NCBI GenBank assembly: GCA_035433205.1
Contig: DAORUN010000003.1
Location: 4,574-68,573, forward strand
Direction of reading: 5' to 3'
From: Thermoflexales bacterium
GTDB lineage: Bacteria > Chloroflexota > Anaerolineae > J036 > Brachytrichaceae
DNA length: 64,000 nt
Shown here: positions 1-16,296 of the stretch, one piece after another
Layout of the letters: every line of letters begins with the position of its first letter
Position numbering within the stretch: position 1 is the first letter of the stretch
Notes under the pieces: model-generated
What the model saw: the letters and a program-made list of their open reading frames with translations, nothing else
The model's database searches: none
What the model was told of the DNA's origin: nothing
Program-made: the position numbers and the translations under genes

Positions 1-1000
1 AAAACCCAAAATTGCCAAACAACTGAGCCAGCCATGCGGGCAAACCGGGCACAACCGTGCGCAACAAAACCGCCACCATGTTAAATGGATGGGTCATCAT
101 CCAGACGATTTGCTCGCCTGGGTAGGCGTCTGTCAAAATATCCCAGTAGTCGTTTAGATGGGCGGTGGCTTTGTTCCAGCCCAGCGCGGCGATCAGACCC
201 GTCCCGGCGATCAACCCGAACGCCATCCAAAAAGAGCGGTTTTTGGGGAACACCGGCGATGCGATGAGCAGCGCGAAGGGCAAGACCAAGTAGGCTTGTT
301 TTGCCAGCGCCACAAACACGCTCACCGCCAGAAGGGCAGGCAGCGCGCGCGCTTTTAATTTGTGGCGCGGGTCAAATGCCAGCCTAAGCGCCATCGCCAA
401 AAGCAAAAGCGCAAATGCATTGGTGAGGGAATCTGCGGAGAGCGAGGCGCGCTGGGTGGCCGCAGCCGTGCCTAGCGAGAGAAACACAAACAGCCACTTG
501 TAAATTGGCGCAATGCGTATGGCCAACGCGGTGATGGCAACCGCAACGAGCATGGTGGCCAGCCGCGCCAGATACATCATCACCAGCGGAGACGCGCCCA
601 ATCCCCGCCCGATCAAGATGACCAGCGAGGCGGGCAAATACACGGTTGGAAAATAGAAAGTGGCGTTGTTTTTGAAAAATGAAACCTGCGCGGGGGTAAG
701 CGGGTCGCCAAGATGCGCCATGATCTCTTGCGGGCTGGCTTTGTTGTTTACATCGCAGGCGGCGGGGTAGCCGTATTTTGTGTGCAGCGCAATGATGCTG
801 TCTGGGATGATGCTGCCGCCAAATGCCCCTTCTTTTGGCGAGACGATCACTCCTTGCGAGATTTCGTAGGCGCGCGCGTAATGCGAGATTTCGTCTGGCG
901 CTTTTAGCGGCGGGGTGAGTATGCAAAGCAGCAACCCGGTGATGAGGCCGACGAGCGCAAAAAAAGTGTGTGGCGATGAGGAAGAATTGCCTTTGATCAC
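1..1000 (-). CDS. DUF2142-like polytopic membrane protein (GT-C-like), truncated by window edge
   Basis: Minus-strand frame is open from GTG at 1000 (2 nt after the stop of the upstream gene) to position 1. It is absent from the ORF track because no stop lies in the window. My translation VIKGNSSSSPHTFFALVGLITGLLLCILTPPLKAPDEISHYARAYEISQG... shows a TM helix followed by the PDExxHxxRA-type motif I associate with DUF2142, then several hydrophobic helices. Confidence 0.55.
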   Translation of the reverse strand, partial: MIKGNSSSSPHTFFALVGLITGLLLCILTPPLKAPDEISHYARAYEISQGVIVSPKEGAFGGSIIPDSIIALHTKYGYPAACDVNNKASPQEIMAHLGDPLTPAQVSFFKNNATFYFPTVYLPASLVILIGRGLGASPLVMMYLARLATMLVAVAITALAIRIAPIYKWLFVFLSLGTAAATQRASLSADSLTNAFALLLLAMALRLAFDPRHKLKARALPALLAVSVFVALAKQAYLVLPFALLIASPVFPKNRSFWMAFGLIAGTGLIAALGWNKATAHLNDYWDILTDAYPGEQIVWMMTHPFNMVAVLLRTVVPGLPAWLAQLFGNFGF

Positions 1001-1002
1001 GA

Positions 1003-3066
1003 TTAGCGTTGAATTTTGTAAATCACGGCATCGCCATTTTCAAACACGTTTTGGCTGATGGCGCTGAGATTGGGCGAGGGTGGGGCATTGCGTTTGTCTA
1101 CGAACAAATAACGCACACCAAACTGGTCGCGCATCACCGCCAGCGCTTGCGGGTCGGCTTGCACAAACACGCGGTCGTTTAACGCCTTGCGTTCTGGGAA
1201 GGGTTGGACGCGCAGTTGCTCCACGTCTTTGTAGCCCAGGCGGTGCGCCTCGTTGGAGTATGCCCAGCCTTCCAGAAAGACGCTGCGCTCGGCAAAGGCC
1301 GCGGCGTAAAAATTGTGCGGGGTGGGGATGATGTAAATCGTTTTGTCAATCAGCGCCGTGTTCACTGCGATCACATCGGCTGGGTTTGTGTTTTGGCGTA
1401 GCCAGGTGTAAGCCGCATACATGCCTGGGGTAAGCTGCGTGCTTTGGGTGTAGACGGGTTGGCCGCTGCGCCATTTGCTAAAGTTCAGCCGCGCGTCAAA
1501 TGGGGCGTCCATCCCTGCAAGGAGGATGAGCGCGAGGACTGGCGCGAGAGCCGCCCGCGCCCAACGCGTGTGCGCGCCGCGTCGCGCGGCCTGCCAGAGT
1601 TCCATCACCCCAATGGCCGCCAAAACGCACGCGGCGGGCATGGCGTAATACAAAAATAAAATCTGGCCGTAATTGGGGTAATCCAACATCAAAAAGGCGG
1701 CAAACCCCGCCAAAATTACGCCCAGCAAAAGCGCGTTCTGCTGGGTGATGGCGCGTGGGCGGGCGAGCAATGCGGCTATGCCAGCCACGTGTGCGGGCGC
1801 AAACCCAATTATTGCCGGGATGGCGAAGGCCAGCGCGGGCAGAGCGGGAAGTTTTTGCCGCCATTGCGTCACCGCTTCCATCCGCCAGAGTGATTGCAGC
1901 GGGGCAATGCTTGCGCTGCGATCCATGTCTTTGTAAATGACAAGAAAGAACACCAGCAAAATGATGACCGAGAGCGCCCATGCGGCAAAGGCGGGCAGAA
2001 CGGGCATGGGCGTTGGGGAGGCGCGTTTTAGCAGCGCTTGCAACATTTGGAACGCGAGAAAGAGCGTCAGCCCGCCGGTGACGACCGGCAAAGCGGAAGC
2101 CTTTGTGCCACCCAGCCCAATCAGCAAAAGCGCCAAGACGAGCAGATGTGAGCGTAACCCCGCTTTCTTCTGGATCATCTCTACCAAAACGATGAAGATG
2201 GCGAGCGTCATCACCAAACCAAGCGCGTAACTGCCAGAGATGTGCAAATAGCCAATGCCCCAATTGCCAAATAACGCTGGCTCGCGCACATCCAGATCGC
2301 CCTCGCCCAAAAACAGCCCAAACACAACCGCAAGCAGGCCGATGGCGCTTTTGCCGCTGGCGGCTTTGCCCAACGCAAAATATTGAACTGGCAGGAGCGC
2401 AATCAATGGCAGGATGTAAAGCCGCAACGCCACCGCAGGCAGTGGAATGCCAAATACTTGCGTGGCGGCGGCCATGTCAAAAAACTGGTTAAAGTAATAG
2501 CTAAGCGGATTGCCGGAGATATGCGGGTCGGTGATGGGTACTTGGTGCAACGCTTGCGCGGCCAGGCTGATGGAATACGGGTAATCCACAAAATACGTCA
2601 CCCCGCTCACGGTTCCGGGCAGAGGTGATGGCAGGTAGAACGCAAAGACAAAATAAACGAGCAAAACCAAACTGGCCAACGCCAGCAACACCGGGATGAT
2701 GGCGTTTGATTTCCGCGGCGCATCTGGAGATGGCTTTGGCCTGCGCCGCAAAACAAGTATGCCGCACGCGGCGATGATGAGAACGGGGTAGGCGAGGAAC
2801 AGCGGACGTGCGCCCAATTGCGCCGTTAGGCTGAAGGCCAATGTTTCCAGCACAAAGCCCAGCGCCCAACCAATGGCGATGGCGCGGGCGTTTAGCGCGC
2901 GGCTGGGCCAAATGGCAAAATAGAGCGCCAGACCCGGCCCCAGCGAGAACACCGCGCAAAACACGAGATAGGCCAGCGCATCACGCGCGGTTACGCCTGC
3001 CCAGATTGCCATACCCAGCGCGGCGCAGGCAAACAATGTGTGCGGGGCATACTTCAAGAGGCGCAT
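1003..3066 (-). CDS. Large polytopic membrane protein with C-terminal extracytoplasmic domain (GT-C-like, function unassigned)
   Basis: 687-aa ORF with an ATG start. About 500 aa of repeated hydrophobic helices precede a soluble tail (...YAAAFAERSVFLEGWAYS...GVRYLFVDK...). The tail resembles the region preceding the propeller in the 4742-8044 protein. Spacing to both neighbours is 2-7 nt. Confidence 0.6.
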   Translation of the reverse strand: MRLLKYAPHTLFACAALGMAIWAGVTARDALAYLVFCAVFSLGPGLALYFAIWPSRALNARAIAIGWALGFVLETLAFSLTAQLGARPLFLAYPVLIIAACGILVLRRRPKPSPDAPRKSNAIIPVLLALASLVLLVYFVFAFYLPSPLPGTVSGVTYFVDYPYSISLAAQALHQVPITDPHISGNPLSYYFNQFFDMAAATQVFGIPLPAVALRLYILPLIALLPVQYFALGKAASGKSAIGLLAVVFGLFLGEGDLDVREPALFGNWGIGYLHISGSYALGLVMTLAIFIVLVEMIQKKAGLRSHLLVLALLLIGLGGTKASALPVVTGGLTLFLAFQMLQALLKRASPTPMPVLPAFAAWALSVIILLVFFLVIYKDMDRSASIAPLQSLWRMEAVTQWRQKLPALPALAFAIPAIIGFAPAHVAGIAALLARPRAITQQNALLLGVILAGFAAFLMLDYPNYGQILFLYYAMPAACVLAAIGVMELWQAARRGAHTRWARAALAPVLALILLAGMDAPFDARLNFSKWRSGQPVYTQSTQLTPGMYAAYTWLRQNTNPADVIAVNTALIDKTIYIIPTPHNFYAAAFAERSVFLEGWAYSNEAHRLGYKDVEQLRVQPFPERKALNDRVFVQADPQALAVMRDQFGVRYLFVDKRNAPPSPNLSAISQNVFENGDAVIYKIQR

Positions 3067-3073
3067 GGGTATA

Positions 3074-4651
3074 TCACGGGGCGCAGCCTGAATCCAAATT
3101 GAAATACAACGCCCCGCCGATTTGCGCCGACTGGCTGAGCGGTTTGAGGTTTAGCCCTTTTTGCCAATCTGGTTTTGCCTCGTCGTAGAGCAGCACGTAT
3201 TTGGATTTGAGCGGCGTTTGCACCGTGTCTGTGCCCAGCGGGTTGTGCGCGTATGAGAACGCCACCCCAGCCGGCAGGGCGGTGAAATAATATGACTTGA
3301 AGAATGGCAAATGCTGGTTTGCCATGAGGGTGTTGCACCACGCAGGCGCGCCGGGCGTGTAATGCACATCGGCGGCTTTTATCATGCGGTCAAACTCTGG
3401 GGTGAGCGCGGTTGAAACCGGGAACTCTTTTAGCACGTAATCGGCGTATAGGCGGCGGAAGGCCTGAATGCTGGCGATGTTGGTCACGATCATGATGACC
3501 GCCAGAATGCGCCAGAGTTTGCTGGTCTTTTCGGTGGCGACGAAGAACAAGGCGAATAACAACAACGGCGAAGCCATCACCCGCTGGCCCTGATAAAACA
3601 TATACAACGCGGTGATGGCGACGAAGGTGAGCGCCCCGCCCAGCGAGAACAACGCTTTTGCCAGTGCGCTGGGGTCGCGGCCATTCCGCAACCATTTGAC
3701 CAGTTTTACGATGCCCATGACCAACAACGCCAGAACAGCCAGAATCACGTGTCCTGCCAGAACAAATGTGGTTACCGCCAGCCCTTCGCCTGTGCGGGCC
3801 TCGGCCCATGCGGCGGAGATGGTTGCAGACAGCGCGTTGATTTGCGCGCTGGCAATGCTGGCCGGGCTGCCAGAGCCTTTGATGATGTCATAGGCGGGGG
3901 CAATGTTTGGGAAAGGCGCGACCAGATATTGAAACTGCAAAAAGATGCCCGCGCCGATCACGAGCGCCATCGCCAAAAAGCCAATGAGTTTGGGCCAGCG
4001 CGTGGCGGGTTTGGCGCAGACCAGGCAAGCCCAAACCGCAATCACCGGCGCCCAGCTTGGGCGGGGCAGGCTGATGAGAACCAGCGCGGCCAACGCCAGC
4101 CACACCCAAATTTGCCCATCCGTTTTTTTTATGCGCACGAACAGACCGGCAATCAGGATTGCCATCGCCAGATGCGTGCCATCCATGATGCCAACCGGCA
4201 GGTAAAACATGATTGGCATCCACGTGACGACCAGCGCGGTGACAACCAGCGCGCGCCGAAGGCTGAGCTGCGCCAGAAAGAGAAACGCCAAAAAGCACAG
4301 CGTGAGAAAGACAAAATTCCACAAATGGATGGAGTAGGGCGCCCATCCCAAAACCAGGGCGATGGGGCCGAACAAAAGGGCATACCACGGGCCGTAGTTT
4401 CCGTAGTTGGAGGCGGGTAGTTTGGCGAGCTGTTCGTTTACGCTGTAATTGCCGTTTCCAAACCCAACATGGGCAAAGCTTAGCCCTTGATGCCAATAGC
4501 CAATGCTGTCATTCCAACTGGGCTGGGCAGAAAATAATGTTGTGCGCCCAAGAATGGCAAGGATGAGCAGGTTAAACAGCGCGGGCAGGAGCGCCAGAAT
4601 CATCAGTTGCCACCATGCTGGGCTATGTTCTTTTGTATTCGCAGTTCGCAT
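3074..4651 (-). CDS. Polytopic membrane protein with soluble C-terminal domain (function unassigned)
   Basis: The ORF-track start at 4690 is TTG. The first ATG at 4651 gives MRTANTKEHSPAWWQLMILALL..., followed by many TM helices. The start is uncertain between 4651 and 4690. Confidence 0.55.
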   Translation of the reverse strand: MRTANTKEHSPAWWQLMILALLPALFNLLILAILGRTTLFSAQPSWNDSIGYWHQGLSFAHVGFGNGNYSVNEQLAKLPASNYGNYGPWYALLFGPIALVLGWAPYSIHLWNFVFLTLCFLAFLFLAQLSLRRALVVTALVVTWMPIMFYLPVGIMDGTHLAMAILIAGLFVRIKKTDGQIWVWLALAALVLISLPRPSWAPVIAVWACLVCAKPATRWPKLIGFLAMALVIGAGIFLQFQYLVAPFPNIAPAYDIIKGSGSPASIASAQINALSATISAAWAEARTGEGLAVTTFVLAGHVILAVLALLVMGIVKLVKWLRNGRDPSALAKALFSLGGALTFVAITALYMFYQGQRVMASPLLLFALFFVATEKTSKLWRILAVIMIVTNIASIQAFRRLYADYVLKEFPVSTALTPEFDRMIKAADVHYTPGAPAWCNTLMANQHLPFFKSYYFTALPAGVAFSYAHNPLGTDTVQTPLKSKYVLLYDEAKPDWQKGLNLKPLSQSAQIGGALYFNLDSGCAP

Positions 4652-4679
4652 CGGTGCGGCTATTTTAGAGGAAGGAAAT

Positions 4680-4742
4680 ATTGAATGCAAAATACTGAAT
4701 GCAAAACTCGGAAATTAGCATTCTGCGAATTTTGAGTTCAAT
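4680..4742. repeat. Degenerate tandem-unit hairpin (TGAATGC type)
   Basis: TGAATGCAAAA is repeated at 4682-4692 and 4696-4706. An imperfectly complementary arm GCATTCTGCGAATTTTGAGTTCAAT lies at 4718-4742. Intergenic between two membrane-protein genes. Confidence 0.5.
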
Positions 4743-7700
4743 TACGGGTTGTTCGTGTAAACAATGCGGCGGATCTGGCCCTTTTCTGGCGTGGAGGTGA
4801 AAAGCACATACCAGAGGTTGCCATCTGGCCCCTGCAAAATTTGAGATTGGCCGGACGTGGCGGTCTCGCGCGTCTCAAACAGCAGCGGATGGATGCTGTG
4901 CGTTTCGCCATCCTGAATGCGCATATAGCTGATTTTGTCCCAGTTGTAGTCTGCAAACACCAGCGCGCCTTGCAAATAGGCCGGGTAATTTGTGCCGGTA
5001 TATACCGCGCCCATGATGACCGACTCGCTGCGCAGATGTTTGTATGAATATATTGGCGCTTCAATCACTTGGTTGCGCACGGCGTAAAGCGGGTCGCACA
5101 GGGCGCGAACGCGGGCATTGTTTGTCTCGGCGAAGGCGGTCATGATGGCGTTCTCGGCGTTGTTGCCTTCAAAGCACGGCCAGCCAAAGTTTTTTCCGGT
5201 GCCCATATTGATCTCTTCCCATGTCACCTGGCCCACGTCGCCAATATAAAGTTGCTCGGTAACCGGGTGGAGCAGGAAGCGGAATGGGTTGCGCAAGCCG
5301 TAGCTCACGGTCTTGGAGCGATTGCTGTTCGGGTTGCCATCATAGAACGGATTGTCTGGATAGCCCTCACCGGTTTCTGGATTGATGCGCACGATTCTTC
5401 CTGCCAGGCTATCCAGCGATTGCGCGCGGACGGCGCGCAGATCTGTGCCCGCCAAGCCGCCCTCGCCAATGCTGACCCAAAGCGAGCCATCCCTGGCAAA
5501 CAAGACCGTGCCGCCTGCGTGGGTCAGGCTGTCTTCGCCAATACAATCTTGTAAATAGCCGGTTGTTTCGGAATAACACGACTGTTTGGTCTGGTCAAAT
5601 GTGTCATCCACATTGCCGATATTTGCCAGAACGCTGTTTTTGCCCAACAAAATTTTGCGCGCATCCGGTGTCATGCTGGCGCGATTTGGATTTTGCGGAT
5701 CAACCTTGATCCGTTCCAGACGGCTGACGCGCGACCCCATCCCATCTGGTTCAACACCGGGTGGGTCATACACGTAAAACACGTAAAGATAAGGATTTTC
5801 TGGAAAATTGGGGGCAAGCGCAAACCCCAAAACGCCGCGGTCAAACGTGTTATTAACGTCGTCAGAAAGATCCATAAACGGTTCTGGCAGCAACGCTCCG
5901 TTCTGGTAGATCAAAAACTTGCCGCTTTTCTCGGCGATGAACAACCGCCCGTCTTTGGCGAATTGCATCGTTGTCGGCTCGGTCAGCCCGTCAATCACCA
6001 GCTCAGATTTGAAAACAAAGGGCTTGCCGTCTTGTTCGGAAATGGGTTTTGGGAGCGGATATTTGTCGAAAAGGCTCACCTCAAAAATATCGGCGTCATC
6101 GTTGGTATACAACGGCGAGACAACCGGATACAAGCTGGGTGGCACCGGCTGGCCGTGCAGCCGGTCAATGTAAAGATACTTTACGCCGTAGGCATTGTGC
6201 ATTTGCTTGAGGGCCTCTGCGTCGCCATCTTCAAAAACGGCGGTTGCCAATTGCTGGCGCGCCGGGCTGGGCGCCCCGCCCAGGAAAGTCCTGCGCTCTG
6301 CAAAGGCAGGGTAAACCCCGTCCATGCTGGCTGGGCGGTCATCTATGCGGTTGGTGGCAATCACATCTCCGGGGGAGGAGTGTTCGCGTAGCCACCGCAA
6401 ACCCATATACAACGAGCTGGACATGCCCGCATTTGATGTTTCGTAAGCCAGATCGCCCGTTGCAATTTTGAGGAGGGGTGGGGCGAGCGAAGTGATGGGC
6501 GTGATGGCAAATCCTGCCAGCGCCAAAACGCCACAGCCCGCAAGCAGGGCTTTTTTGGCAGATGGGGCGGCTGCGAAATTTTTATCTGCCATTTGGCGAA
6601 GACCCGAAGCCGCCAGCGCCGACCCGGCCACAAAGCCAAAATTAAACGCGGTCAGCGAACCCGCATCGGTGGCGGGAGACGGAACGAGCGCGACAACCGC
6701 GCCAACGACAAACATGACCGCAAGCGCCATCAACGCAGGCGGGATGGGTTTTGCGCGGCTTAGCGCCCATGCCCCGCCAATAATTTGCAACGCCGAGCCA
6801 GCCAGCATAACCACCAGCGTTAAAGCGGGTGGAATTTGCATGGCGGCGCGTTGCGCAGACAAAATCCCCGAATAAAAAATGAGCAGACTAATGAAAGCCA
6901 GCGCCAGCCACAACGCGGCGGGTGTGTTTAACGCGCGGTCGCGGTGGTAGCTCAGGGCCAGAATGCAGGCTGCGCCAACTGCCAGCATGAAGATTGGTTG
7001 CGGGTCGCAACTGGCGCATACGCCCATCAATAACACGATGACGAGCCAATGCGGATTGCGGGCAGAGATTCCATCGGCCTGAACAGAATGTAAAAATTCA
7101 ACCAGAAGCGCGGCAAATAAAATCTGGGCCAGCAAATACGATGGGTTTGACCAGAGCGAGGAAAATCCCGACTGAATGCCAGCCAGCCCTGGCAAAACAA
7201 TTTGCCCCACAAACAAGATCAGGAACGTGGCGATTAAGCCCGAACTGCGTTTGCCATCCACGGCTTTGCCAGCCGCATAAAGCAAAAAAAGCAGGCACAA
7301 CCCGCAGGCGATTGGGTTTAGCCGCAACACGATCTCGGCGATGGGCACGTTTGTTGTATCTGCCGCCGCCGCCAGATGGAACAAGCTGCCCGGCGCATGA
7401 ACAAGCGCCGTCCCCGCCAGTTGCGGGTTCATGACTGGAAAGTGCGCCAACGCCTCGGCGGTGAAGCCGATATGCTGGAGCAGGTCGTTGTTGAGCGCCG
7501 CCTGGCTGAACGTGCCGGGCAGCGGCTGTGTCAGAAACATGCCGATGTAAAAATACAAAATGAACGCAGCCGCCATCAGCGCAAATAGGACGATGCATGT
7601 GTCTTTGGAAATATCCGCGCCCGAGCTTGCGTTTTTTGCGTCATTTGCGCGCGGGGCGCGTTTCCAGAGCGTTAACGCCGAAATGAGGATGACGGGCGCG

Positions 7701-8044: not shown

Positions 8045-8068
8045 GATGGAAAAGATTATACGCCTTGC

Positions 8069-9052
8069 TTATGGCGCATTTGGCAAAACGCGCAGCGCGG
8101 CGACGATTTGCGCCGTGTATTTTGCGCGTCCAGAATCATTCAAATGGTAAATCGTGTCATAGAAATCAGACGCGGGCAACAGGCTTTTTGGCGGCGACCC
8201 GGTGATTGTCATTTTGGCGTCGCGCTGGATGGTTTGATAAAGCGCATCCAGCAAAGCGCGATTGCCGGCGTCGTTGGTGTAAAGCTGTTCTGGAATGACG
8301 GGAAACGCCAAAATCGCGGTTGCCCCGCGCGATTTTGCGAAGTCCGCAAAGTCATTTAGGGCGGCAATGCTGTCTGGGTCAAACGTGAGATTCTCTTGAT
8401 ACGAAAGTTTGAGCGCGTTAATTTTGTCTGCGCCCAAGCCGGGTTTGCCCAAATGCGCCACGTAATCGCCGTGCGCGTTGAACCCCTCGCGAAAATATTC
8501 AACTTGCTGGCTGGTGGCGGGCTGGGGCGGGGTTTTGCGGGTGATGGCGTTCCCCAAGGCTTTTTGCTCTGCGTTCCAAATGGCTGTTAGCGCGTGAAGG
8601 TGCGTTGTGGCGGGAAGATACGCCATGCTTTGCGGAAAACTCACTTGCACCAGCGTGGCGATGGCGTCATCGGAGCGCCGTGTTTCGCGGTAATAGAGCT
8701 GATATTCTGGCGTGATGTAAATCACATCGCCCGCGCGGATGTATGGCCTGACCTCATCCAGCATGACCCGCAGACCCAGCCCGGCATACAAACCCATGTT
8801 CACCACTGGGCGGTTCAGGTTGTTCTGAATTTTCTCGCTATCCACGCCCAACGCCAGCCCAGACCCGCCCACCAGCACGATTTTTGGCGAGGCGGTTTTT
8901 GCGAGCAGGGCGTGCTTTTGGTTGGTCGCAGACAGGTAATCTGCCTCGCTAATGCTGATGGCGGGCGGGATGAGGCGCATCAGCCCCAGCATGGTGAGGA
9001 TGACGGCCATGAGCAGGGCCAGGGTTTTTGCGGCGAACTTTGTGGCTGACAT
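8069..9052 (-). CDS. Membrane-anchored SGNH/DltD/AlgJ-like protein (putative O-acyl transfer partner)
   Basis: An N-terminal signal anchor is followed by IVLVGGSGLALG (candidate nucleophile Ser block) and a C-terminal FYDTIYHLN (D-x-x-H block), as in DltD/AlgJ-type SGNH-like proteins. An MBOAT gene lies in the same locus. Confidence 0.5.
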   Translation of the reverse strand: MSATKFAAKTLALLMAVILTMLGLMRLIPPAISISEADYLSATNQKHALLAKTASPKIVLVGGSGLALGVDSEKIQNNLNRPVVNMGLYAGLGLRVMLDEVRPYIRAGDVIYITPEYQLYYRETRRSDDAIATLVQVSFPQSMAYLPATTHLHALTAIWNAEQKALGNAITRKTPPQPATSQQVEYFREGFNAHGDYVAHLGKPGLGADKINALKLSYQENLTFDPDSIAALNDFADFAKSRGATAILAFPVIPEQLYTNDAGNRALLDALYQTIQRDAKMTITGSPPKSLLPASDFYDTIYHLNDSGRAKYTAQIVAALRVLPNAP

Positions 9053-9055
9053 GTT

Positions 9056-10510
9056 TTATTTGCCCAGATAAATGGATGCGCCTTGATATTCAAAAATCAG
9101 CTCAGTTGGTTTGCTGGTGAGCAGCTGAATGGGGTGGCCTGCATTGGTTGCCACAAAAAATTCGCGCCCGGTTTTGTTTTCATTTTGCGGCCCAATTTCA
9201 GAATGCAATTGCCACAAATAAAAATACACCGGCCAGTCCTCCGGGGTTTTTATGGTTAGCTTGTCGCTCGGTGTCATCGCTTTTGCAAGCTGGGCGGCAA
9301 TGGCAGGGGCCTGCGCAAACACGCCAGTGTCTGGGTAGCGGGTGATGGCGTTTGTTTGAGCCAGCATCACCGCGAATAGAGCGCAACCCGCGCAGGCCGC
9401 GCCCCCCAGCGCGAGGCTCGTCCCCGGCCAGCGATCCATCAGCCATGCAAAGCCGCCATCTGCGGTGATGAACACAAATGGAATGAGGTAAATCCAGGTG
9501 CGCGGGAACGGTGTTGCGTGTTGCGCAATCAGCGCCAGCGCGGAACCAATCAGCATGCATGGCAAAAGCAGGGCCGCGGCAAGGCGCTGGGTTTTAATCG
9601 CCCGCGCCAAACCCATCAGCAAAAAAGCCAGCAACAAAACAAGGGCGGGGATGGGAACATCACGGGTGAAATCGTTAAATGTGTATTGCAGTTGCACCGG
9701 CATCAATCTAAAAAATTCCGGCCAGGGCAGGGGGCGCACAAACTCGTTGGACGTGATGGCCGCAATGCTTTTTGTGGCGTAGATCACTGGCAAATAAAAC
9801 GCGGCGGTGAACAAGGCCGAAAGAACGCCGCATGGCAAAACAAATCCCAGCAACACGGGTTTAAGGGCGCGGTGTTTGATGAGCAAAAGCGCTGTCAGCC
9901 AAAGATAAATGCCCGCGACTGGAAATAAAAATGAGGGCATAGTCAGCATCCCCAGCGCGGCCACCATTGCCATGCCAACAAGCTTGATTCGCATAGGCAT
10001 CTGGTGATAGCCGTATGCTAACCATGTGAGAACCAACGCAAACACAACGACCATCGTGTAACCACGCGCGTTTGTAGCATACAAAACCAAATACGGAAAG
10101 ACCGCCATTGCCAGCGCGGCAAAAACGCCGGAATTTGAACTTCCCATCAAGCGGCAAATGCGGTATATCAACGGGATGGCTAAAACGCCCGCGGCAAATG
10201 CGGGCAGGCGCAAGGCGGCGGGCGCGGCGCTTGCCTGCGCCACAACTTTTACCAGCGCCGTGTGCAGAACGTGATTATTTGGCAGGGTGTAGCGAAACAC
10301 ATCCAGCCAACTGCCATTGACATATTTCAGAAAGGTATACGCCTCGTCGTAACGCATGGGCTGCGCCAAAAAGTAAACCCGGAGGGTAATCCCGATGAGC
10401 AATGCCGCGAGAATCGGGATCAACCAGCCGAAGGCGCTTTTTTTGGCGAATGAATTTCCGGGCGAAATGGATGACATGACGAATTTATTTTGCCGCGAAA
10501 ATAACGCCAT
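9056..10510 (-). CDS. GT-C family membrane glycosyltransferase (ArnT/PMT, GT39/83-like)
   Basis: 484-aa polytopic protein. The first extracytoplasmic loop carries PMRYDEAYTF, a DE-type motif typical of GT-C enzymes. An alternative ATG at 10477 would remove the 26-nt overlap with the upstream gene. Confidence 0.6.
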   Translation of the reverse strand: MALFSRQNKFVMSSISPGNSFAKKSAFGWLIPILAALLIGITLRVYFLAQPMRYDEAYTFLKYVNGSWLDVFRYTLPNNHVLHTALVKVVAQASAAPAALRLPAFAAGVLAIPLIYRICRLMGSSNSGVFAALAMAVFPYLVLYATNARGYTMVVVFALVLTWLAYGYHQMPMRIKLVGMAMVAALGMLTMPSFLFPVAGIYLWLTALLLIKHRALKPVLLGFVLPCGVLSALFTAAFYLPVIYATKSIAAITSNEFVRPLPWPEFFRLMPVQLQYTFNDFTRDVPIPALVLLLAFLLMGLARAIKTQRLAAALLLPCMLIGSALALIAQHATPFPRTWIYLIPFVFITADGGFAWLMDRWPGTSLALGGAACAGCALFAVMLAQTNAITRYPDTGVFAQAPAIAAQLAKAMTPSDKLTIKTPEDWPVYFYLWQLHSEIGPQNENKTGREFFVATNAGHPIQLLTSKPTELIFEYQGASIYLGK

Positions 10511-12023
10511 CGGCGTAACTGGATGCGCGCGCGGTGGGGCAGCCCGTTGTGAATTGTTTTTGATCTGGGAACATGGGGCGGTCGTTTATGGCGTTATAAA
10601 AAACAACGGCGGCCTTGCCAGACACGGTTTCATCACACATTACCCGCATTTCCAGATCAAAACCTTCATTTTGTTTTTTGGTCACGCCATCATAAATGAG
10701 CGGCAACGCAGCCGAGCGCTTTGCTTCCATTTGAAAATTGATATGGTCAAAACCATTCGAGTAAATCTTTGTTCCAGAGGTGATGGAATGCGCGGCGGCA
10801 TACGTTGGCGAGTCTGTCCATTGCGTTGCGCCATAACCCCATCCCGTTTTTTGCATGGTCCCCAGCTTGGTTGATGCGACCCGTGCGTTGAGAAATGCGG
10901 ATGCGGGCAGCAGCGCCAAAAACGCCAGGGCAATGATTGGTTTATGGGTCGCCCTGGCCACATTTCTGGTTAGCGCTACTGCCGCCAGAATGAGGGCCAC
11001 ATAAACAGGTAGAAGGATGCGCGAGTCTACCGGGGTGGTGTTGTCAAAAAAAGAAATGGACACCGCCAAAAAAGGCACATAAACCACAACAAACAAAAGC
11101 GCCATCAAAGGGATGGCCAAGTTAGCGGCGCGGGCGCGCGTGAAAGCCTTTTTTTGTTTGAGCATGAAAAGCCCCAGCCCAAACAACGCGCAAACAAGCC
11201 CTAGAAAAACAAGTTGCTGGTTAAATGACAAAATGCCCGGCAAAATGTAATTGCTCATCGTGCGGATGAAATCATAAATGTGCTGGCTGGTGATGAGATG
11301 CACGGCAAATGTGCGGTCAGTGGCCTGGCTGGCGCGCAAAGTGTTATACATGCCCCAAATGGCAAGCGGGGTGATGGCCGCCGCGCCCGCCGTGATCACC
11401 TCGCCCCATTTTTTGCGCGGCGGGTTTTTGCTCAACACCCAAAGTGTGAGCAGCAGCGGCGGGATGAGTGTCGCCCCGATATACCGTGTGACCGCCGCAA
11501 GTCCCATCGCGAAAGCGGCCAGCGCCAGAACAACCAATTGACCTTTTCGAAAATACAACGCCAGCAGGCAAAACCCCGCCAGCATGAACGTGAGAAATGG
11601 TGGTTCCGACCACGCCATGACGTGATTTTCCAAGATGGGGAATGAAAACAAAAAGAGGGTCAGCCCAACCAGCACTGCCCAAACGCTGTTTCGGGCGCTT
11701 GCCCGCAATGCCAGCCCCATCAGCACCGTGTTTATGCCCATGAGCGCCACATGCAACAGACGCGTGGATGGATACACCATGCCCGGTTGCAGCGCGTTTG
11801 AAATGGCGATGAGCGCCGGGTAAACGGGCGGAAAATGTGTGGCGGGGTTGCCCCATTGGGTGAACCCCTGTCCCATCTTTACGCCCAGCGCGGTTTCGAT
11901 GTAGACCACCGAGTCAATGGATATGCCCGTGCCGTGCGTGGTTGCCCAATACACCAAAGCAGATGACGCAAATGCGGCAACCAGAATGAGTGATACCGCG
12001 ATGATGTTTTTTTTATCAGTCAT
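10485..12023 (-). CDS. GT-C-like polytopic membrane glycosyltransferase
   Basis: The ORF-track start at 12038 is TTG. The ATG at 12023 (MTDKKNIIAV...) lies 4 nt after the MBOAT stop. An ISIDSVVYIETA motif follows TM1, then >10 helices and a soluble C-terminal domain. Confidence 0.55.
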   Translation of the reverse strand: MTDKKNIIAVSLILVAAFASSALVYWATTHGTGISIDSVVYIETALGVKMGQGFTQWGNPATHFPPVYPALIAISNALQPGMVYPSTRLLHVALMGINTVLMGLALRASARNSVWAVLVGLTLFLFSFPILENHVMAWSEPPFLTFMLAGFCLLALYFRKGQLVVLALAAFAMGLAAVTRYIGATLIPPLLLTLWVLSKNPPRKKWGEVITAGAAAITPLAIWGMYNTLRASQATDRTFAVHLITSQHIYDFIRTMSNYILPGILSFNQQLVFLGLVCALFGLGLFMLKQKKAFTRARAANLAIPLMALLFVVVYVPFLAVSISFFDNTTPVDSRILLPVYVALILAAVALTRNVARATHKPIIALAFLALLPASAFLNARVASTKLGTMQKTGWGYGATQWTDSPTYAAAHSITSGTKIYSNGFDHINFQMEAKRSAALPLIYDGVTKKQNEGFDLEMRVMCDETVSGKAAVVFYNAINDRPMFPDQKQFTTGCPTARASSYADGVIFAAK

Positions 12024-12027
12024 CGTG

Positions 12028-13521
12028 CTAGAACGCAAAATAAATAAACTCGTTGTTGCCCTCGGTTGCCATTCGCCCCAAAATAATAATCGCCATGATG
12101 CCGATGTAATACACCGCCCAGCGCAGCGTTGCCGGCTGGCGGTTCACCATGTCAATGATGGAGCCTCGGCGTTCCTGGATTAAGTCCACCAGCAGCAATA
12201 CGCCAATGAGGGCGAACAACGCCGCAAGAACACCATACCCGCCGAGCGGATCAAACATTTGGCCGCGCGTCGTCGCGTTCAGCAGGCCGCCCCATCCGCT
12301 GAACAAATGCGTCACCACGTAAACCGCCTCGTTCAGATTCCTGGCGCGAAAGAATATCCACGCGAAAGTTGCCAGCCCAAAGGTGAACAAAACGCGCAAA
12401 ACCGTCCATACTCGCGGGTGCTTGGCGATGCCGATGGCGTCTACCAGTTTGCGCCGAGCCTTCTCGGTCAACATTTCAATCACCCGGAAGGTGCCATGCA
12501 AAACGCCCCAAATTACAAAGGTCCAGTTTGCGCCGTGCCACAACCCGCTCACCACAAATACAATAAACACATTCAAAATGCGCCGCGCGGGCGAGACGCG
12601 GTTGCCGCCCAGCGGGATGTAAAGATAATCGCGGAACCAGGTTGAAAGCGAGATGTGCCAGCGCGACCAAAAATCGCCAATGCCAGTGGCGAAATACGGA
12701 TGGTTGAAGTTCTTCATCAACGTAAACCCCATCACCTCTGCCGAGCCAATGGCGATATTGGAGTAGCCCGCGAAGTCGCAATAAATTTGAAAGGCATACA
12801 AAATCATGGCGATGACCAGCGTTGGCCCGGCGAACTTCATTGGGCCGGTTGGGTCGGAAGCCAAACTGCCGCCCATCACCGCGTTCACCGTTGGCGAGAT
12901 GCGATCCGCGATCACAACTTTCATAAAGAAGCCCCACGCCATCATTTTTAGCCCGCGCGTAATGCGGTCGTAATCAAACGTGTGCTTGTCTCGCATTTGG
13001 CTGAGGAGGTTCTGCGGGCGCTCAATTGGCCCCGCCACCAGTTGCGGGTAGAACATCACGTATAACGCAAAAATGCCAAAATGCTTTTCCACCGGTTGCC
13101 GCCCGCGATAAACCTCAATCGTGTAGGCCATGGATTGAAAGGTATGAAAACTCAGGCCGATGGGCAAAAGAATATTGAGCAAATAATTTTTGCCAGCGGC
13201 GGCGTTTCCCAGCGCTCCAAAAATAGATTCCACGCCAAAGTTCCAATACTTAAACACCGCCAGCACGCCAATGTTGGCCACCAGGCTCAACCCCAGCATC
13301 CATTTGCGCTTTTTCCCTTCGGACTGGGCGATGAGAATCCCCGCGATGTAATCTATGCAAATGGTGAAACCCAAAATGAGAATGTATTCCCATTTGTAGG
13401 CCATGTAAAAGATGCAGCTCGCGACCAGCAGCCACACCCAGCGCGCCTTTTGCGGCAACACAAAATACCCAATCGTCACAATTGGGAAGAACAGCAGGAA
13501 TTCAAAGGAATTGAATAGCAT
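12028..13521 (-). CDS. MBOAT family membrane-bound O-acyltransferase (AlgI/DltB/PatA-like)
   Basis: MLFNSFEFLLFFPIV N-terminus, WHISLSTWFRDYLYIPLGGNR and SGLWHGANW (catalytic His block). These are classic MBOAT signatures. Confidence 0.9.
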   Translation of the reverse strand: MLFNSFEFLLFFPIVTIGYFVLPQKARWVWLLVASCIFYMAYKWEYILILGFTICIDYIAGILIAQSEGKKRKWMLGLSLVANIGVLAVFKYWNFGVESIFGALGNAAAGKNYLLNILLPIGLSFHTFQSMAYTIEVYRGRQPVEKHFGIFALYVMFYPQLVAGPIERPQNLLSQMRDKHTFDYDRITRGLKMMAWGFFMKVVIADRISPTVNAVMGGSLASDPTGPMKFAGPTLVIAMILYAFQIYCDFAGYSNIAIGSAEVMGFTLMKNFNHPYFATGIGDFWSRWHISLSTWFRDYLYIPLGGNRVSPARRILNVFIVFVVSGLWHGANWTFVIWGVLHGTFRVIEMLTEKARRKLVDAIGIAKHPRVWTVLRVLFTFGLATFAWIFFRARNLNEAVYVVTHLFSGWGGLLNATTRGQMFDPLGGYGVLAALFALIGVLLLVDLIQERRGSIIDMVNRQPATLRWAVYYIGIMAIIILGRMATEGNNEFIYFAF

Positions 13522-13554
13522 TTTTTCAAGTGCAAGATACGCTTCGCACGCAAC

Positions 13555-13584
13555 TTTCTTATTTCTTATCTCTTATTTCTTCAT
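13555..13584. repeat. AAGAAAT-type repeat arm (TTTCTTATTTCTTATCTCTTATTTCTTCAT)
   Basis: It shares TTTCTTATTTCTT with the arm at 14750-14769 and is the reverse complement of the arm at 14673-14697. It overlaps the stop and last codons of the GT4 gene. Confidence 0.6.
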
Positions 13585-14662
13585 ACATTTTCAGCAACGC
13601 ATCCGAGTTTTTGCCCCAGTCTGCGCGGGCTTCGGCAATTTGGCGGTTGGTTTGGCGGATGGCCTCACGGCGGGCTTCGTCCAGCCGCGCGGCTTGCAGC
13701 ATCCATCGCGCCACATCTTCGCTGTCACCCTTGCGGGCCAGCCAGCCATTCTCATCGTGCCGAACCCACTGCGCGTTGCTAGGCACATCGGTCACAATCG
13801 CGGGCAGCCCGGTCGCCATCGCCTCCAGCAAAGATACCGATGAGCCATCATTGTAAGAGCAACTGGCATATACATCCGCATTCTGAAAGGTCGTCCCAAT
13901 CTGGGCGTTGTTGATTCGCCCGGGCAGCGCGATGGCCGTCGCCAGATCATGCTTTTGGATGAAGCGGTGAACTTCGTGAGCCATTGTTCCATCCCCCGCC
14001 AGAACCAGCCGCAACCGCGCGTCTTGCCCCCGCGCCAGCGCAAACCCGCGCAGCAAAACATCAACCCCATAAATCGGTTCCCACGAACGGGTGGATAAAA
14101 ACGTGATTGTTTGGGAGTTGGCAGGCGCGGGGCGGGCGGGGTGGGGCGGCGCAAATTTTTTAAGGTCAATGCCCCAGGGAAATTCCAGGATGCGCAGCGC
14201 GGGCGCAAACTCCGCGATCTTTTGATGCACCACCTGCGAATCGCACAACGCGCTTGCGGCGCGATCCAGCGCGAAATGGGTGGCCCAGCGCCACTCGGCA
14301 TCGCGCTCGGCGTCCTCCAGCATGTCTGATGCCCATGACATGATGACCAGCGGACGAAAGCCAGACAAGGCAGCCATAAGCCCGCAAGTTTGCACTGGCC
14401 CGGCCTGAATCACATCGGGTTTCACCTCGCGGATCACGCGCAGCAAATCTTCCATCAAGGGCAGCGCGTCTCGCGGCGCATCCAGCGCGGCGCGGGTTCC
14501 ATCCCACAAAACAAGATGCGCCCCCGCTGGCAGCGGGCGCGTCTCGTGAATGGCGATGTTGCCAGCCCGCGCGTGCCACACCTCGTGCCCGCCATCCACC
14601 ATTTTGCAGATGAAGCGGTGGTCGTGGCTGGTGTAGCCCCGGCTGATATACAGGATGCGCAT
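13559..14662 (-). CDS. Glycosyltransferase family 4 (GT-B fold)
   Basis: The ORF-track start at 14674 is TTG. The ATG at 14662 gives MRILYISRGY.... The C-terminal EAMATGLPAIVTDV...ENGW block is the E-x7-E type GT4 motif. Confidence 0.8.
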   Translation of the reverse strand: MRILYISRGYTSHDHRFICKMVDGGHEVWHARAGNIAIHETRPLPAGAHLVLWDGTRAALDAPRDALPLMEDLLRVIREVKPDVIQAGPVQTCGLMAALSGFRPLVIMSWASDMLEDAERDAEWRWATHFALDRAASALCDSQVVHQKIAEFAPALRILEFPWGIDLKKFAPPHPARPAPANSQTITFLSTRSWEPIYGVDVLLRGFALARGQDARLRLVLAGDGTMAHEVHRFIQKHDLATAIALPGRINNAQIGTTFQNADVYASCSYNDGSSVSLLEAMATGLPAIVTDVPSNAQWVRHDENGWLARKGDSEDVARWMLQAARLDEARREAIRQTNRQIAEARADWGKNSDALLKMYEEIRDKK

Positions 14663-14672
14663 GATGTTCTGC

Positions 14673-14769
14673 AAATAAGAAATGAAGAAATAAGAAACTT
14701 TCCGCGGGCAACATTTTTGAGAAGCAGAAAATTTGCCCCCCGGATTCTCTTTCTTATTTCTTCATTTCT
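14673..14769. repeat. AAGAAAT-type long hairpin (20-bp perfect stem, 52-nt loop with inner GC stem)
   Basis: 14678-14697 AGAAATGAAGAAATAAGAAA is exactly complementary to 14750-14769. The loop contains GGGCAA...TTGCCC. It lies between the lysC stop and the GT4 start. Confidence 0.8.
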
Positions 14770-14776
14770 CTTTTCT

Positions 14777-16216: not shown

Positions 16217-16228
16217 GATTTTGATTAC

Positions 16229-16296
16229 TGAATTCTGAATTCTGAATGCCGATTGCTGAAAACTTTCTGAATTCAGCATTCAATATTCAGAATTCA
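16229..16296. repeat. GAATTCT-type hairpin (21-nt arms, 19/21 complementary)
   Basis: TGAATTCTGAATTCTGAATGC (16229-16249) pairs with GCATTCAATATTCAGAATTCA (16276-16296). It lies between the HD-protein stop and the lysC start. Confidence 0.8.

Follow-up and report, generated by a model that had tools for sequence, protein, structure and literature searches.

Six GT-C glycosyltransferases from five sequence families and an MBOAT with its conserved partner in a nine-gene array of a Thermoflexales bacterium

Three-component GT2/flippase/GT-C systems are widespread (PMC11127046), and a role as polymerase or transferase for the cell-wall polysaccharide of lactococci has been proposed for DUF2142 proteins (WpsI/WpsJ; PMC12599335, PMC9746298). 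The Thermoflexales bacterium (Chloroflexota) considered here possesses, in the 64-kb stretch of DNA that was analysed (the window), an array of nine genes (g1 to g9 in ascending coordinate). The ORF list and translations place all of them on the minus strand at 1-14674, with intergenic spacing from -26 nt (g7/g6) to +51 or +90 nt (g4/g3, set by the start codon), as in the original prediction of nine co-directional genes with spacers of -26 to +90 nt. The array is bordered on the right by an aspartate kinase gene (14777-16279) and on the left by convergent genes for a GalE-like epimerase and an SDR protein, located on contig L001, which is 99% identical and supplied the sequence past the left end of the window. 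The same array recurs at 99-100% identity in four independent assemblies, one of them the Thermoflexales MAG GCA_035426445.1. The window also holds two further GT-C genes (PMT_2 and YfhO), 10 kb from the array, and an MGDG-synthase-like gene.

GT-C glycosyltransferases of the array

Six of the nine array proteins are GT-C glycosyltransferases, identified by Pfam (g1, g6 and g7), by AlphaFold and Foldseek (g2 and g3) and by paralogy with g2 (g4), so that the original description of all six polytopic proteins as GT-C-like is borne out. They span five unrelated sequence families (DUF2142, g2/g4, g3, PMT_2 and PMT), and three of them (g2, g4 and g3) fall in two families for which there is no Pfam or NCBIfam model. 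The profile searches suggested with the original prediction matched PF09913, PF13231, PF02366, PF07995, PF03062 and PF00534 across the array, g2 and g3 being without a Pfam family; the structure predictions and fold comparisons suggested alongside them matched g2 and g3 to solved GT-C enzymes including ArnT, AftA and AglB.

The DUF2142 polytopic GT-C-type membrane protein g1 (1-1000; PF09913, E 1.1e-40) is represented in the window by the N-terminal 333 of its 456 residues, the gene continuing past the left end; the full length of 456 aa is found in L001 and in L067-L070, and orthologues in two relatives, L063 and L066, are 66-73% identical. The PMT_2-type glycosyltransferase g6 (9056-10510; 473-484 aa, about 11 TM helices) matches PF13231 above the gathering score (E 1.4e-6; 29.1 bits against a cut-off of 26.1), as does the PMT-type glycosyltransferase g7 (10485-12038; 512-517 aa) with PF02366 (E 1.1e-7; 32.2 bits against 22.7); g7 also weakly matches the LA_3751/LA_3752 family and has no relationship to g6 detectable by BLASTP. 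Each of the three carries an acidic motif in its first outer loop: PDE in g1 (as PDE..H, directly after TM1), YDE in g6 (after TM1) and IDS in g7.

The 687-aa g2 (1003-3066) combines about 14 TM helices with an extracytoplasmic alpha/beta domain at the C-terminus, gave no match in Pfam and NCBIfam searches, and belongs to a rare family, with only 14 homologues found by a word-indexed search. Its AlphaFold model (pLDDT 84.6, pTM 0.89) has the GT-C fold: all 18 Foldseek matches in the PDB with E <= 0.01 are GT-C enzymes (E 1.7e-7 to 7e-3), namely STT3, AglB, PglB, DPY19, AftA and ArnT, STT3 and AglB supplying the seven best, and the C-terminal domain alone matches the globular domain of AglB-S2 (3VU0, probability 0.98, TMt 0.55). 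D161, R215, W555, R594 and D657 are invariant in the family, D161 (15 of 15 sequences) being located in the first outer loop.

The 1100-aa g4 (4742-8044) is a fusion. Its N-terminal module (about aa 1-660; 6065-8044) is a divergent GT-C paralogue of g2 (BLASTP: 28% identity over 689 columns, E 8e-48); the kinship first suspected from a similar soluble domain is thus stronger than supposed, extending beyond that domain to about 660 residues. Equivalents of D161, R215, W555, E593, R594 and D657 are retained in g4; K322 is replaced by D and the EGWxYS loop of the family is absent, losses by which catalysis may be altered. The C-terminal module (about aa 661-1100; 4742-6064) is a glucose/sorbosone-dehydrogenase-type beta-propeller, predicted to be extracytoplasmic, that matches PF07995 (GSDH; E 5.4e-36) over aa 687-1080 (4805-5986). 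It keeps the catalytic-position His (THAGG, residue 842) and an RNP motif (residue 918), and its closest PDB relatives are the PQQ sugar dehydrogenases 2ISM, 3A9G and 2G8S together with HHIP. L075 and the partial L066 share the fusion at 80% identity.

For g3 (3074-4690; alternative starts at 4651 and 4603, giving 509-538 aa by start codon), Pfam, NCBIfam and PDB sequence searches, profile searches included, gave no match, and a full phmmer search found 753 representative homologues. Its AlphaFold model (pLDDT 88.9, pTM 0.91) again has the GT-C fold, with ArnT as best Foldseek match (5EZM, E 1.3e-5, TM 0.46), followed by AglB (5GMY, second), ALG9, STT3, AftA and PMT; the high-probability matches are GT-C enzymes, and transporters turn up among the weak ones (probability < 0.2). 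Among 45 g3-family sequences, the first loop contains a near-invariant D61 and an invariant E86.

The acyl-transfer pair and the GT4 gene

The MBOAT membrane O-acyltransferase g8 (12028-13521; 497 aa) is DltB/AlgI-like (PF03062, E 4.5e-31), with DltB as its closest PDB match (6BUG, E 3.7e-29) and the MBOAT His motif ([20 protein letters not shown]) at residue 288; its score against the TIGR04091 model of DltB, 162 bits, is below the cut-off of 375. The 327-aa g5 (8069-9052), held in the membrane by one N-terminal TM helix, is a putative extracytoplasmic acyl-transfer partner from an unnamed family that adjoins MBOAT genes. All 72 of its homologues are annotated "hypothetical". Searches of g5 itself against Pfam, NCBIfam and PDB profiles gave no match, and PF16822 (ALGX) matches weakly in 5 of 47 family members; the SGNH/DltD-like assignment of g5 is therefore tentative, whereas the remaining gene-by-gene assignments proved essentially correct by Pfam, structure prediction with Foldseek, and paralogy. 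Invariant residues of the family are G62-G63-S64, N85, D109, E116, G195-D196 and H303. A g5-family gene directly follows an MBOAT gene in three independent lineages (L071, L072/L073, L074 and L077-L079), with two tandem copies, 54% identical, in L072/L073 (Nitrospirota). This makes g5 a conserved MBOAT partner, and because the arrangement recurs in other phyla, g8 and g5 are taken to form an acyl-transfer pair.

In the array, the pair is split by the inserted g7 and g6, with junctions of 3-11 nt. Since these two genes sit so tightly between the MBOAT gene and its obligate partner, all nine genes of the Thermoflexales species are almost certainly, to judge from the gene layout, read as one transcript. 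The first gene of the array is g9 (13559-14674, with an ATG start at 14662, the end point given originally; 367-371 aa), which encodes a cytoplasmic GT4 (GT-B) glycosyltransferase (PF00534, E 3.5e-26; PF13692, E 3.9e-23) whose translation contains no TM helix; its orthologue in L074 is 55% identical and directly follows aspartate kinase.

Conservation of the array in relatives

The array is a mosaic, and its genes are not conserved together as a set of nine. Where relatives share 54-56% identity, the orthologous locus reads HD-protein-AK-GT4-MBOAT-g5 and then continues with an ABC importer; it contains no GT-C gene, and g5 lies immediately next to MBOAT. Closer relatives (two or more other lineages, 60-80% identical) keep the g5-g4 adjacency and the g4-g3-g2-g1 order, and conservation of this GT-C block is confined to them; the synteny sought by the original prediction is therefore present for these genes but not for the nine-gene set. 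Across 60 genome loci, the g2 family occurs without homologues of g1, g3 or g5-g8.

The array has no Wzx/Wzy, Wzm/Wzt, polyprenyl-phosphate GT2, flippase, initiating phosphotransferase or exporter, in agreement with the absences originally listed. Nor did Pfam find such a gene among 40 larger ORFs in the rest of the window, with the exception of a distant ABC-2 membrane protein (54320-55138), and the 10 kb beyond the left end contain no polyprenyl-phosphate GT2, flippase, initiating phosphotransferase or exporter; donor supply in this bacterium is accordingly an assumption. In L063 and L066, g3-g2-g1 (with g4 ahead in L066) lead into a GT2 that carries two TM helices at its C-terminus and is best matched by ArnC (2.9e-56) and PgfS, with a WecD-like GNAT behind it; a WecE-like transaminase (3e-107) comes next in L066, whose contig extends far enough to show it. 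Counterparts of these ArnC-like GT2, WecD-like and WecE-like genes were not found in the window. The g2 homologue in Dormibacterota and Actinomycetota loci adjoins a GT2 50-60% identical to that of L063, frequently with WecE-like genes, and in Solirubrobacterales it lies among GT2, methyltransferase and Acyl_transf_3 genes. The polyprenyl-phosphate GT2 directly downstream of DUF2142 in relatives, with its WecD-like and WecE-like neighbours, places the system within the known GT2/flippase/GT-C scheme, as a variant, and not outside it.

Proposed role and alternatives

Taken together, the array probably encodes machinery, most of it extracytoplasmic, for assembling or decorating a cell-surface glycan and then O-acylating it. 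The lipid-carrier-dependent elaboration and acylation first envisaged is thereby the best-supported reading, shorn of the notion of nine genes as one conserved unit and of the suggested sheath. Established knowledge of GT-C enzymes and MBOAT systems suggests the following steps. Polyprenyl-phosphate-linked sugars would be made on the cytoplasmic side before being flipped outward; their synthase in the Thermoflexales bacterium would be encoded elsewhere in the genome and in the two closer relatives would be the ArnC-like GT2, where the WecE-like and WecD-like genes would make a 4-acetamido-4,6-dideoxyhexose. Outside the membrane, each GT-C protein would add its own sugar or lipid-linked oligosaccharide to the growing glycan, by way of an acidic residue conserved in its first outer loop; the propeller of g4 may hold or modify the acceptor glycan, as carbohydrate-binding modules do in Emb, AftD and GT136 enzymes. 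From the MBOAT g8 an acyl group, acetyl being the likeliest, would pass through the membrane to g5, which would place it on the glycan, and g9 would make a cytoplasmic precursor or primer. In evolutionary terms the array would be a composite of an older GT4-MBOAT-g5 module and GT-C genes added later.

That same history allows a second reading, which we consider unlikely: that the old module acylates one polymer, that the six GT-C genes were inserted later for other glycans, and that the tight array reflects gene accretion, without a shared product, in a genome with many GT-C genes, such as the PMT_2 and YfhO genes 10 kb away. The lack of GT-C genes at the 54-56%-identity loci could indeed mean that the modules serve different polymers, and both the MBOAT-g5 pairs of other phyla without these GT-C genes and the g2 family without other array genes are consistent with this. 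Against it stand the insertion of g7 and g6 within the acyl-transfer pair, with the co-transcription that this implies, and the g5-g4 adjacency and g4-g3-g2-g1 order kept in other lineages.

Protein glycosylation, in which secreted or S-layer proteins would be O-glycosylated by g6 and g7 and g2 and g4 would move lipid-linked glycans to protein, so that the acceptor is not a polysaccharide, is improbable. Pmt O-glycosylates proteins in Actinobacteria, and g6 and g7 match the PMT_2 and PMT models; these matches are marginal, however, and both models also span ArnT-like lipid and glycan transferases. The STT3 and AglB structures that lead the matches of g2, the AglB-S2 likeness of its C-terminal domain and the second rank of AglB for g3 point the same way. 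Yet an STT3 Pfam match is absent, g2 and g4 contain neither WWDYG nor W.[DE][YFW]G, and DPY19, AftA and ArnT come within 2-4 orders of magnitude of the oligosaccharyltransferases in E-value, all at TM about 0.4, so that the fold match of g2 is a generic GT-C one; moreover, g2-family genes lie among genes of polysaccharide type.

Action of the GT-C proteins and the MBOAT pair on a membrane glycolipid or lipoteichoic-acid-like lipoglycan in place of a wall or capsule polysaccharide, modelled on ArnT (lipid A), PimE/MptA/Emb (LM/LAM) and DltB/DltD (LTA), is highly improbable: ArnT is the top structural match of g3 and DltB the best match of g8, glycolipid anchors are often products of GT4 enzymes, weak matches come from several NCBIfam models of glycolipid synthases and the window contains the MGDG-synthase-like gene, but the array lacks DltA, DltC, DltX and LTA synthase, the DltB score of g8 is far under the family cut-off, and g3 resembles ArnT at the level of fold only, with 11% identity.

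Gene content of the array and its GT-C proteins

The nine minus-strand genes at the left of the window appear to work like known systems of polyprenyl-phosphate-dependent extracytoplasmic glycosylation combined with acylation by an MBOAT protein and its partner. Numbered by ascending coordinate, so that g9 is transcribed first, they are g1 (DUF2142; start at 1000, cut off by the left edge of the window, and 456 aa long in L001, a 99%-identical JGI contig that reaches further), g2 (1003-3066), g3 (3074-4690), g4 (4742-8044), g5 (8069-9052), g6 (9056-10510), g7 (10485-12038), g8 (12028-13521) and g9 (13559-14674). The ORF list and the measured junctions, which range from a 26-nt overlap (g7/g6) to a gap of +51 or +90 nt (g4/g3, depending on the start codon), agree with the original prediction of nine co-directional genes with spacers of -26 to +90 nt. 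The array comprises exactly nine genes, because an aspartate kinase gene (14777-16279, minus strand) lies upstream on the same strand and, in L001, convergent GalE-like epimerase and SDR genes lie beyond g1, together with ABC-ATPase genes. The same array is present in four independent assemblies, including the Thermoflexales MAG GCA_035426445.1, and the base composition of the window shows neither an island-like anomaly nor a sign of foreign origin.

Pfam matches above the gathering score identify g1 (PF09913, DUF2142, E 1e-40), g6 (PF13231, PMT_2) and g7 (PF02366, PMT), those of g6 and g7 being weak; with the propeller of g4, the MBOAT of g8 and the GT4 of g9 (E 3.5e-26), six assignments made originally from the sequence alone are backed by Pfam. 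The g2, g3 and g5 proteins have no match in Pfam or NCBIfam. Seven to 14 transmembrane segments are indicated in g1-g4, g6 and g7 by hydropathy (helix maps for g2 and g3 come from structural models), and all six proteins carry one or more acidic residues at the loop position of the GT-C catalytic Asp/Glu, on a topological side that is predicted; the motifs right after the first transmembrane helix are PDE in g1, YDE in g6 and IDS in g7.

The g2 and g4 proteins are paralogues, as had been proposed, and their homology (28% identity, E 8e-48) is not limited to the similar soluble domain noticed at first but spans the entire membrane-plus-soluble module of about 660 residues. The g2 family is rare, with 14 matches among 5.8 billion proteins in a word-indexed search; an exact-sequence look-up of g2 returned no match. 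An AlphaFold model of g2 built on a 15-sequence alignment (pLDDT 84.6, pTM 0.89) was compared with solved structures by Foldseek, and all 18 matches at E <= 0.01 were GT-C enzymes (STT3, AglB, PglB, DPY19, AftA and ArnT; E 1.7e-7 to 7e-3), those ranking under these 18 being noise. Residue D161 is invariant in all 15 g2-family sequences, g4 included. Two family members, P0006 (985 aa) and P0007 (1013 aa), are extended at the C-terminus by about 250 aa of repeat units, each about 60 aa long, which are missing from the other aligned members.

With three close matches in an indexed search, g3 was a near-orphan at first sight; a full phmmer search raised the number to 753 cluster representatives, of which 534 lie at E <= 1e-10. 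No Pfam domain was found in any of 45 aligned family members, cluster look-ups gave only 'hypothetical protein' without taxonomy, and a distant family locus (L160) had no informative neighbours. The AlphaFold model of g3 (pLDDT 88.9, pTM 0.91) has high-probability Foldseek matches to GT-C enzymes, best to ArnT (5EZM; E 1.3e-5, TM 0.46), then to AglB, ALG9, STT3, AftA and PMT, and in the first loop of the family D61 is near-invariant and E86 invariant. Some g3-family proteins (P0105, P0126, P0133, P0134, P0136, P0143 and others) have N-terminal extensions of 130-250 aa without a Pfam match, and that of P0159, likewise without a match, reaches 690 aa.

Together, the profile matches (g1, g6, g7), fold matches (g2, g3; TM-scores to GT-C enzymes about 0.36-0.46), paralogy (g4) and conserved loop acids confirm the predicted presence of six GT-C-like membrane proteins. 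By sequence they fall into five unrelated families, and for two of these neither Pfam nor NCBIfam has a model. BLASTP found no similarity between g6 and g7 or between g3 and g2, and because family-to-family hhalign gave a probability of 1.7%, the g3 and g2 families are not detectably related. Single-sequence PDB searches with g6 and g7 found no match, and profiles of the g2, g3 and g5 families had no meaningful match among PDB sequences.

The C-terminus of g4 (residues 687-1080) matches the glucose/sorbosone dehydrogenase model PF07995 (E 5.4e-36) over positions 1-322 of 332. HHIP proteins share the fold of these propellers. The g4 domain resembles soluble PQQ-dependent glucose/sorbosone dehydrogenases and HHIP propellers over its whole length; the His of its THAGG motif aligns with that of LHSGG at the catalytic position of 2ISM, and the RNP motif is kept. 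It differs from them in being fused to a GT-C membrane enzyme, with a putative PQQ- or glycan-binding role, and it scores 51 bits with TIGR03606 against a cut-off of 434. The propeller is predicted to be extracytoplasmic, since it comes after the C-terminal GT-C domain, and it may either bind the acceptor, as carbohydrate-binding modules do in Emb, AftD and GT136 enzymes (the last being GT-C enzymes with an extra C-terminal glycan-binding module; PMC11127046), or oxidize it.

Putative acylation pair and composite origin of the array

The g8 protein is an MBOAT (PF03062, E 4.5e-31) with the conserved catalytic His motif at residue 288; its best NCBIfam model and its best solved structure are both DltB, the score with TIGR04091 being 162 bits against an equivalog cut-off of 375. 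This score, the absence of DltA and DltC from the array (which also has no AMP-ligase or carrier protein) and the lack of a DltD model match for g5 led us to reject a Dlt D-alanylation system. The g5 protein has one N-terminal transmembrane helix and belongs to a family of 72 proteins, all annotated as 'hypothetical', with the invariant positions GGS64, N85, D109, E116, GD196 and H303. The SGNH/DltD-like fold originally proposed for g5 is putative: matches to ALGX (PF16822) are weak and confined to five of 47 members (best E 0.00096); NCBIfam searches with these 47 gave noise only, and the family profile found no solved SGNH, DltD or AlgX structure.

A g5-family gene directly follows an MBOAT gene in L071 (a 234-kb contig), in L072 (where there are two tandem copies, 54% identical, and one protein of the contig is listed by NCBI under Nitrospirota) and in Thermoflexales-like relatives. 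Because this order recurs in several separate lineages, the two genes form a conserved module, which by analogy with DltB/DltD, AlgI/AlgJ/AlgX and PatA/PatB would be a trans-membrane acyl relay. The likeness lies in an MBOAT with its His motif, closest to DltB, and in a partner with a single N-terminal transmembrane helix, invariant Ser, Asp and His residues (S64, D196, H303) and adjacency to MBOAT genes across phyla. In contrast to DltD, AlgJ and PatB, g5 matches no such model or solved structure at the sequence or profile level, and unlike in the known systems two GT-C genes, g6 and g7, sit between g8 and g5 in this species.

The orthologous locus of relatives at 54-56% identity (L074, L077-L079) encodes an HD-domain protein, aspartate kinase, GT4, MBOAT, g5 and an ABC importer, with MBOAT and g5 adjacent and no GT-C genes. 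Closer relatives (60-80% identity) have the g4 fusion after g5 (L075) and keep the g3-g2-g1 block (L063 and L066), preceded in L066 by the tail of g4. Synteny is thus conserved for GT4-MBOAT-g5 in the more distant relatives and for g5-g4 and g4-g3-g2-g1 in the closer ones, and not for all nine genes as a unit. Since relatives carry only such parts, the array is best read as a lineage-specific composite, in which two PMT-type genes have been inserted into an older GT4-MBOAT-g5 module and a g4-g3-g2-g1 block has been joined to it. These synteny data give real support to the alternative that independent modules merely lie side by side, which partly overlaps with our reading of one glycosylation and acylation system and which we judge unlikely without discounting it.

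The tight junctions, including those of the two GT-C genes wedged between the MBOAT gene and its partner, argue for co-transcription of the array in this species. Promoter-like sites occur at the level of shuffled sequence and terminator-like sites somewhat above it, with no clear operon boundary found in the scan. Aspartate kinase and GT4 genes are same-strand neighbours both here (13559-16279, with a gap of about 100 nt) and in L074 (1252-3787, with a gap of 10 nt; 55% identity), and the HD-domain protein upstream of them is also kept (62% identity); we see no evident reason for the linkage of the kinase with the GT4.

Putative donor sugars and the predicted pathway

In the closer relatives L063 and L066, the DUF2142 gene is directly followed by a gene for a GT2 of 309-312 aa (two C-terminal transmembrane helices; best matched by ArnC, 2.9e-56, and PgfS), then by a gene for a WecD-like N-acetyltransferase and, in L066, whose contig reaches far enough, by one for a WecE-like transaminase (partial sequence, matching at 3e-107). 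These would be a polyprenyl-phosphate sugar synthase and enzymes for a 4-acetamido-4,6-dideoxyhexose. The GT2 is exactly the gene class that the original prediction listed as missing. Neither the window nor L001 contains any of the three genes, and Pfam scanning of the array and 40 other window ORFs found no GT2, flippase (GtrA, ArnE/F, MATE or Wzx type) or initiating transferase, bearing out the reported absence of Wzx/Wzy, Wzm/Wzt, polyprenyl-phosphate GT2 and initiating phosphotransferase genes from the array.

A genome scan with a 7-sequence g2-family alignment, used because the 15-sequence alignment was too divergent, located 60 loci encoding family members at 25-39% identity, mostly in Solirubrobacterales and other Thermoleophilia, with some in Dormibacterota, one in Acidobacteriota and one in Chloroflexota. 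Homologues of g1, g3 and g5-g8 are missing from all 60. A GT2 gene 50-60% identical to that of L063 and a WecE-like gene are present at many of them: the GT2 gene directly adjoins the g2-family gene at five loci (L008, L010, L017, L019, L021) and is nearby at two (L030, L041), and g2-family genes lie directly beside ArnC-like GT2 genes in Dormibacterota and Actinomycetota. The GT2-WecD-WecE cassette is itself very widespread, with at least 561 relatives in metagenome contigs (60-71% identity), usually without the g2 family; in 80 fetched GT2 loci (L080-L159), WecE is adjacent in 55 and a GNAT gene in 41, and homologues of g1-g8 are found in none. The sole match from the same sample (L158, 62% identical) was rejected as the GT2 of this organism, to which it is not assignable. 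Gene order thus suggests that the g4-g3-g2-g1 block is coupled elsewhere to a polyprenyl-phosphate donor cassette, and the neighbouring ArnC-like GT2 genes (L063, L066 and the g2-homologue loci) point indirectly to putative polyprenyl-phosphate- or -diphosphate-linked donors for the GT-C enzymes.

Like every functional statement past fold and family, the mechanism is one that we infer, here from established GT-C and MBOAT biochemistry: polyprenyl-phosphate sugars would be made in the cytoplasm by enzymes encoded elsewhere in this organism and flipped to the outer face, where the six GT-C enzymes would add them to an acceptor; g8 and g5 would O-acylate the product; and g9 would supply a cytoplasmic precursor. 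Because the DUF2142 proteins WpsI and WpsJ are proposed to polymerize or attach lipid-linked oligosaccharide outside the membrane, as polymerase or transferase of lactococcal wall polysaccharide (roles that are predicted, not biochemically shown; PMC12599335, PMC9746298), g1 may handle an oligosaccharide rather than a single sugar.

Systems that combine a polyprenyl-phosphate GT2, a flippase and a GT-C enzyme include GtrB/GtrA/GtrC, ArnC/ArnEF/ArnT, CsbB/GtcA/YfhO and Citrobacter GT136 (PMC11127046). The array resembles them in the conserved acidic first loop of its GT-C proteins, in the ArnC-like GT2 that follows the GT-C block beside 4-amino-sugar genes in L063 and L066, as in the Arn pathway, and, with GT136, in a GT-C enzyme (g4) whose extra C-terminal domain may bind glycan. 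It differs in its six GT-C genes, where those systems have a single one, in having two GT-C families that neither Pfam nor NCBIfam models, in the lack of a GT2 or flippase gene among its own and the scanned window ORFs, and in an added domain that is a dehydrogenase-type propeller and no known carbohydrate-binding module. Assembly from polyprenyl-phosphate sugars is best known from mycobacteria, where arabinogalactan and lipoarabinomannan are built by EmbA/B/C, AftA-D, PimE and MptA/B. Common to that assembly and, by prediction, the array are several different GT-C enzymes acting in series on one polymer outside the membrane with polyprenyl-phosphate sugars; large C-terminal extracytoplasmic domains also occur in both, and AftA is among the structural matches of g2 and g3. 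Unlike the Emb and Aft enzymes, to which they have no sequence-level relation, the array proteins belong to a Chloroflexota host, and no genes for DPA or PPM synthesis were seen. Lactococcal and streptococcal cwps/rgp loci likewise include a polytopic DUF2142 protein, sometimes beside a bactoprenol GT2 (PMC12599335, PMC9746298), whereas the array has no rhamnan genes, Wzx or WpsH-like co-polymerase. O-antigen (Wzx/Wzy or ABC), teichoic-acid and alginate systems were rejected because their defining genes or motifs are missing, in keeping with the mismatch to these textbook layouts noted originally.

Glycosylation of proteins by the array would account for the PMT matches of g6 and g7 and for the top structural matches of g2, its C-terminal domain included, which are the oligosaccharyltransferases STT3, AglB and PglB. 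However, g2 and g4 have no STT3 (PF02516) match at E <= 0.01 and no WWD or W.[DE][YFW]G motif of the WWDYG type, and the fold match of g2 (identity 11-13%) is no more specific than to GT-C enzymes in general; both were rejected as STT3/PglB/AglB oligosaccharyltransferases, the likeness being at the level of fold only, and we consider protein glycosylation improbable. A lipid or lipoglycan as the target is very improbable. Extracytoplasmic assembly of an acylated glycan from polyprenyl-phosphate sugars is the most probable reading.

Several features of the array are new: six GT-C enzymes are combined in it; neither Pfam nor NCBIfam models two of its GT-C families or its MBOAT-partner family; a GT-C enzyme is fused to a propeller; and the g2 family has a testable genomic link to the ArnC/WecE/WecD cassette. 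A literature search yielded no paper on the locus or on the families that lack a model, and the envelope glycans of Chloroflexota are, to our knowledge, poorly characterized. The array challenges no current concept; six stacked outer-face glycosyltransferases suggest a wider use of polyprenyl-phosphate-sugar assembly for complex wall polymers, and the practical value lies in better annotation, candidate enzymes for glycoengineering and an entry point to Chloroflexota envelope glycans. A more far-reaching and, in its four parts jointly, doubtful reading is that g2 and g4 represent an undescribed GT-C family of Thermoflexales, Thermoleophilia, Dormibacterota and a few others, without a Pfam, NCBIfam or solved relative; that this family would be the dedicated outer-face transferase for the polyprenyl-phosphate-linked 4-acetamido-4,6-dideoxyhexose from the ArnC-like GT2/WecD/WecE cassette; that it may have been recruited in Thermoflexales, with g3, DUF2142 and the propeller fusion, into a pathway of several GT-C enzymes that parallels arabinogalactan/LAM assembly in mycobacteria; and that the product of this pathway might be a major heteropolysaccharide in the envelope of these filamentous monoderms. 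A bolder variant would make g2 a new type of oligosaccharyltransferase acting on proteins.

Other genes of the window

A second glycan group, 10 kb from the array, encodes a PMT_2 GT-C protein of 617 aa (24619-26472, minus strand), a YfhO-type GT-C protein of 740 aa (26273-28495, plus strand), whose predicted start lies within the preceding ORF, and a GT4 (28492-29748, minus strand). With the PMT_2 and YfhO-type proteins added to the six of the array, the window encodes eight GT-C proteins in 64 kb. In the ORF at 30757-32229 (plus strand), which overlaps an amidohydrolase gene on the opposite strand, a GDP-mannose-4,6-dehydratase/epimerase-type domain covers only the part after the first 150 residues or so; the true start of the gene is probably near 31200.

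ARAGORN found genes for tRNA-Arg(CCG) (17534-17605), the sole one of the two also found by an Rfam gathering-threshold scan, and tRNA-Leu(GAG) (35168-35249). A mechanically called ORF (17472-18011, minus strand) that overlaps the tRNA-Arg gene is probably spurious. The tRNA-Leu gene is immediately followed by a gene for a GH127 beta-L-arabinofuranosidase (35303-37207, plus strand; E 2.7e-108). PTS Enzyme I (37866-39599) and a glucitol/sorbitol PTS set (EII-GUT, EIIBC-GUT and GutM; 42046-43786), all on the minus strand, adjoin genes for a DRL-type oxidoreductase and a SorC-type regulator (47143-48174); a sorbitol PTS seems unusual for a Chloroflexota. Another loose cluster, of genes for the envelope or glycolipids, comprises an ABC-2-type membrane protein (54320-55138) and a GT4 (55175-56401) on the minus strand, and an MGDG-synthase-like GT28 (58137-59285) and another GT4 (59811-60968) on the plus strand.
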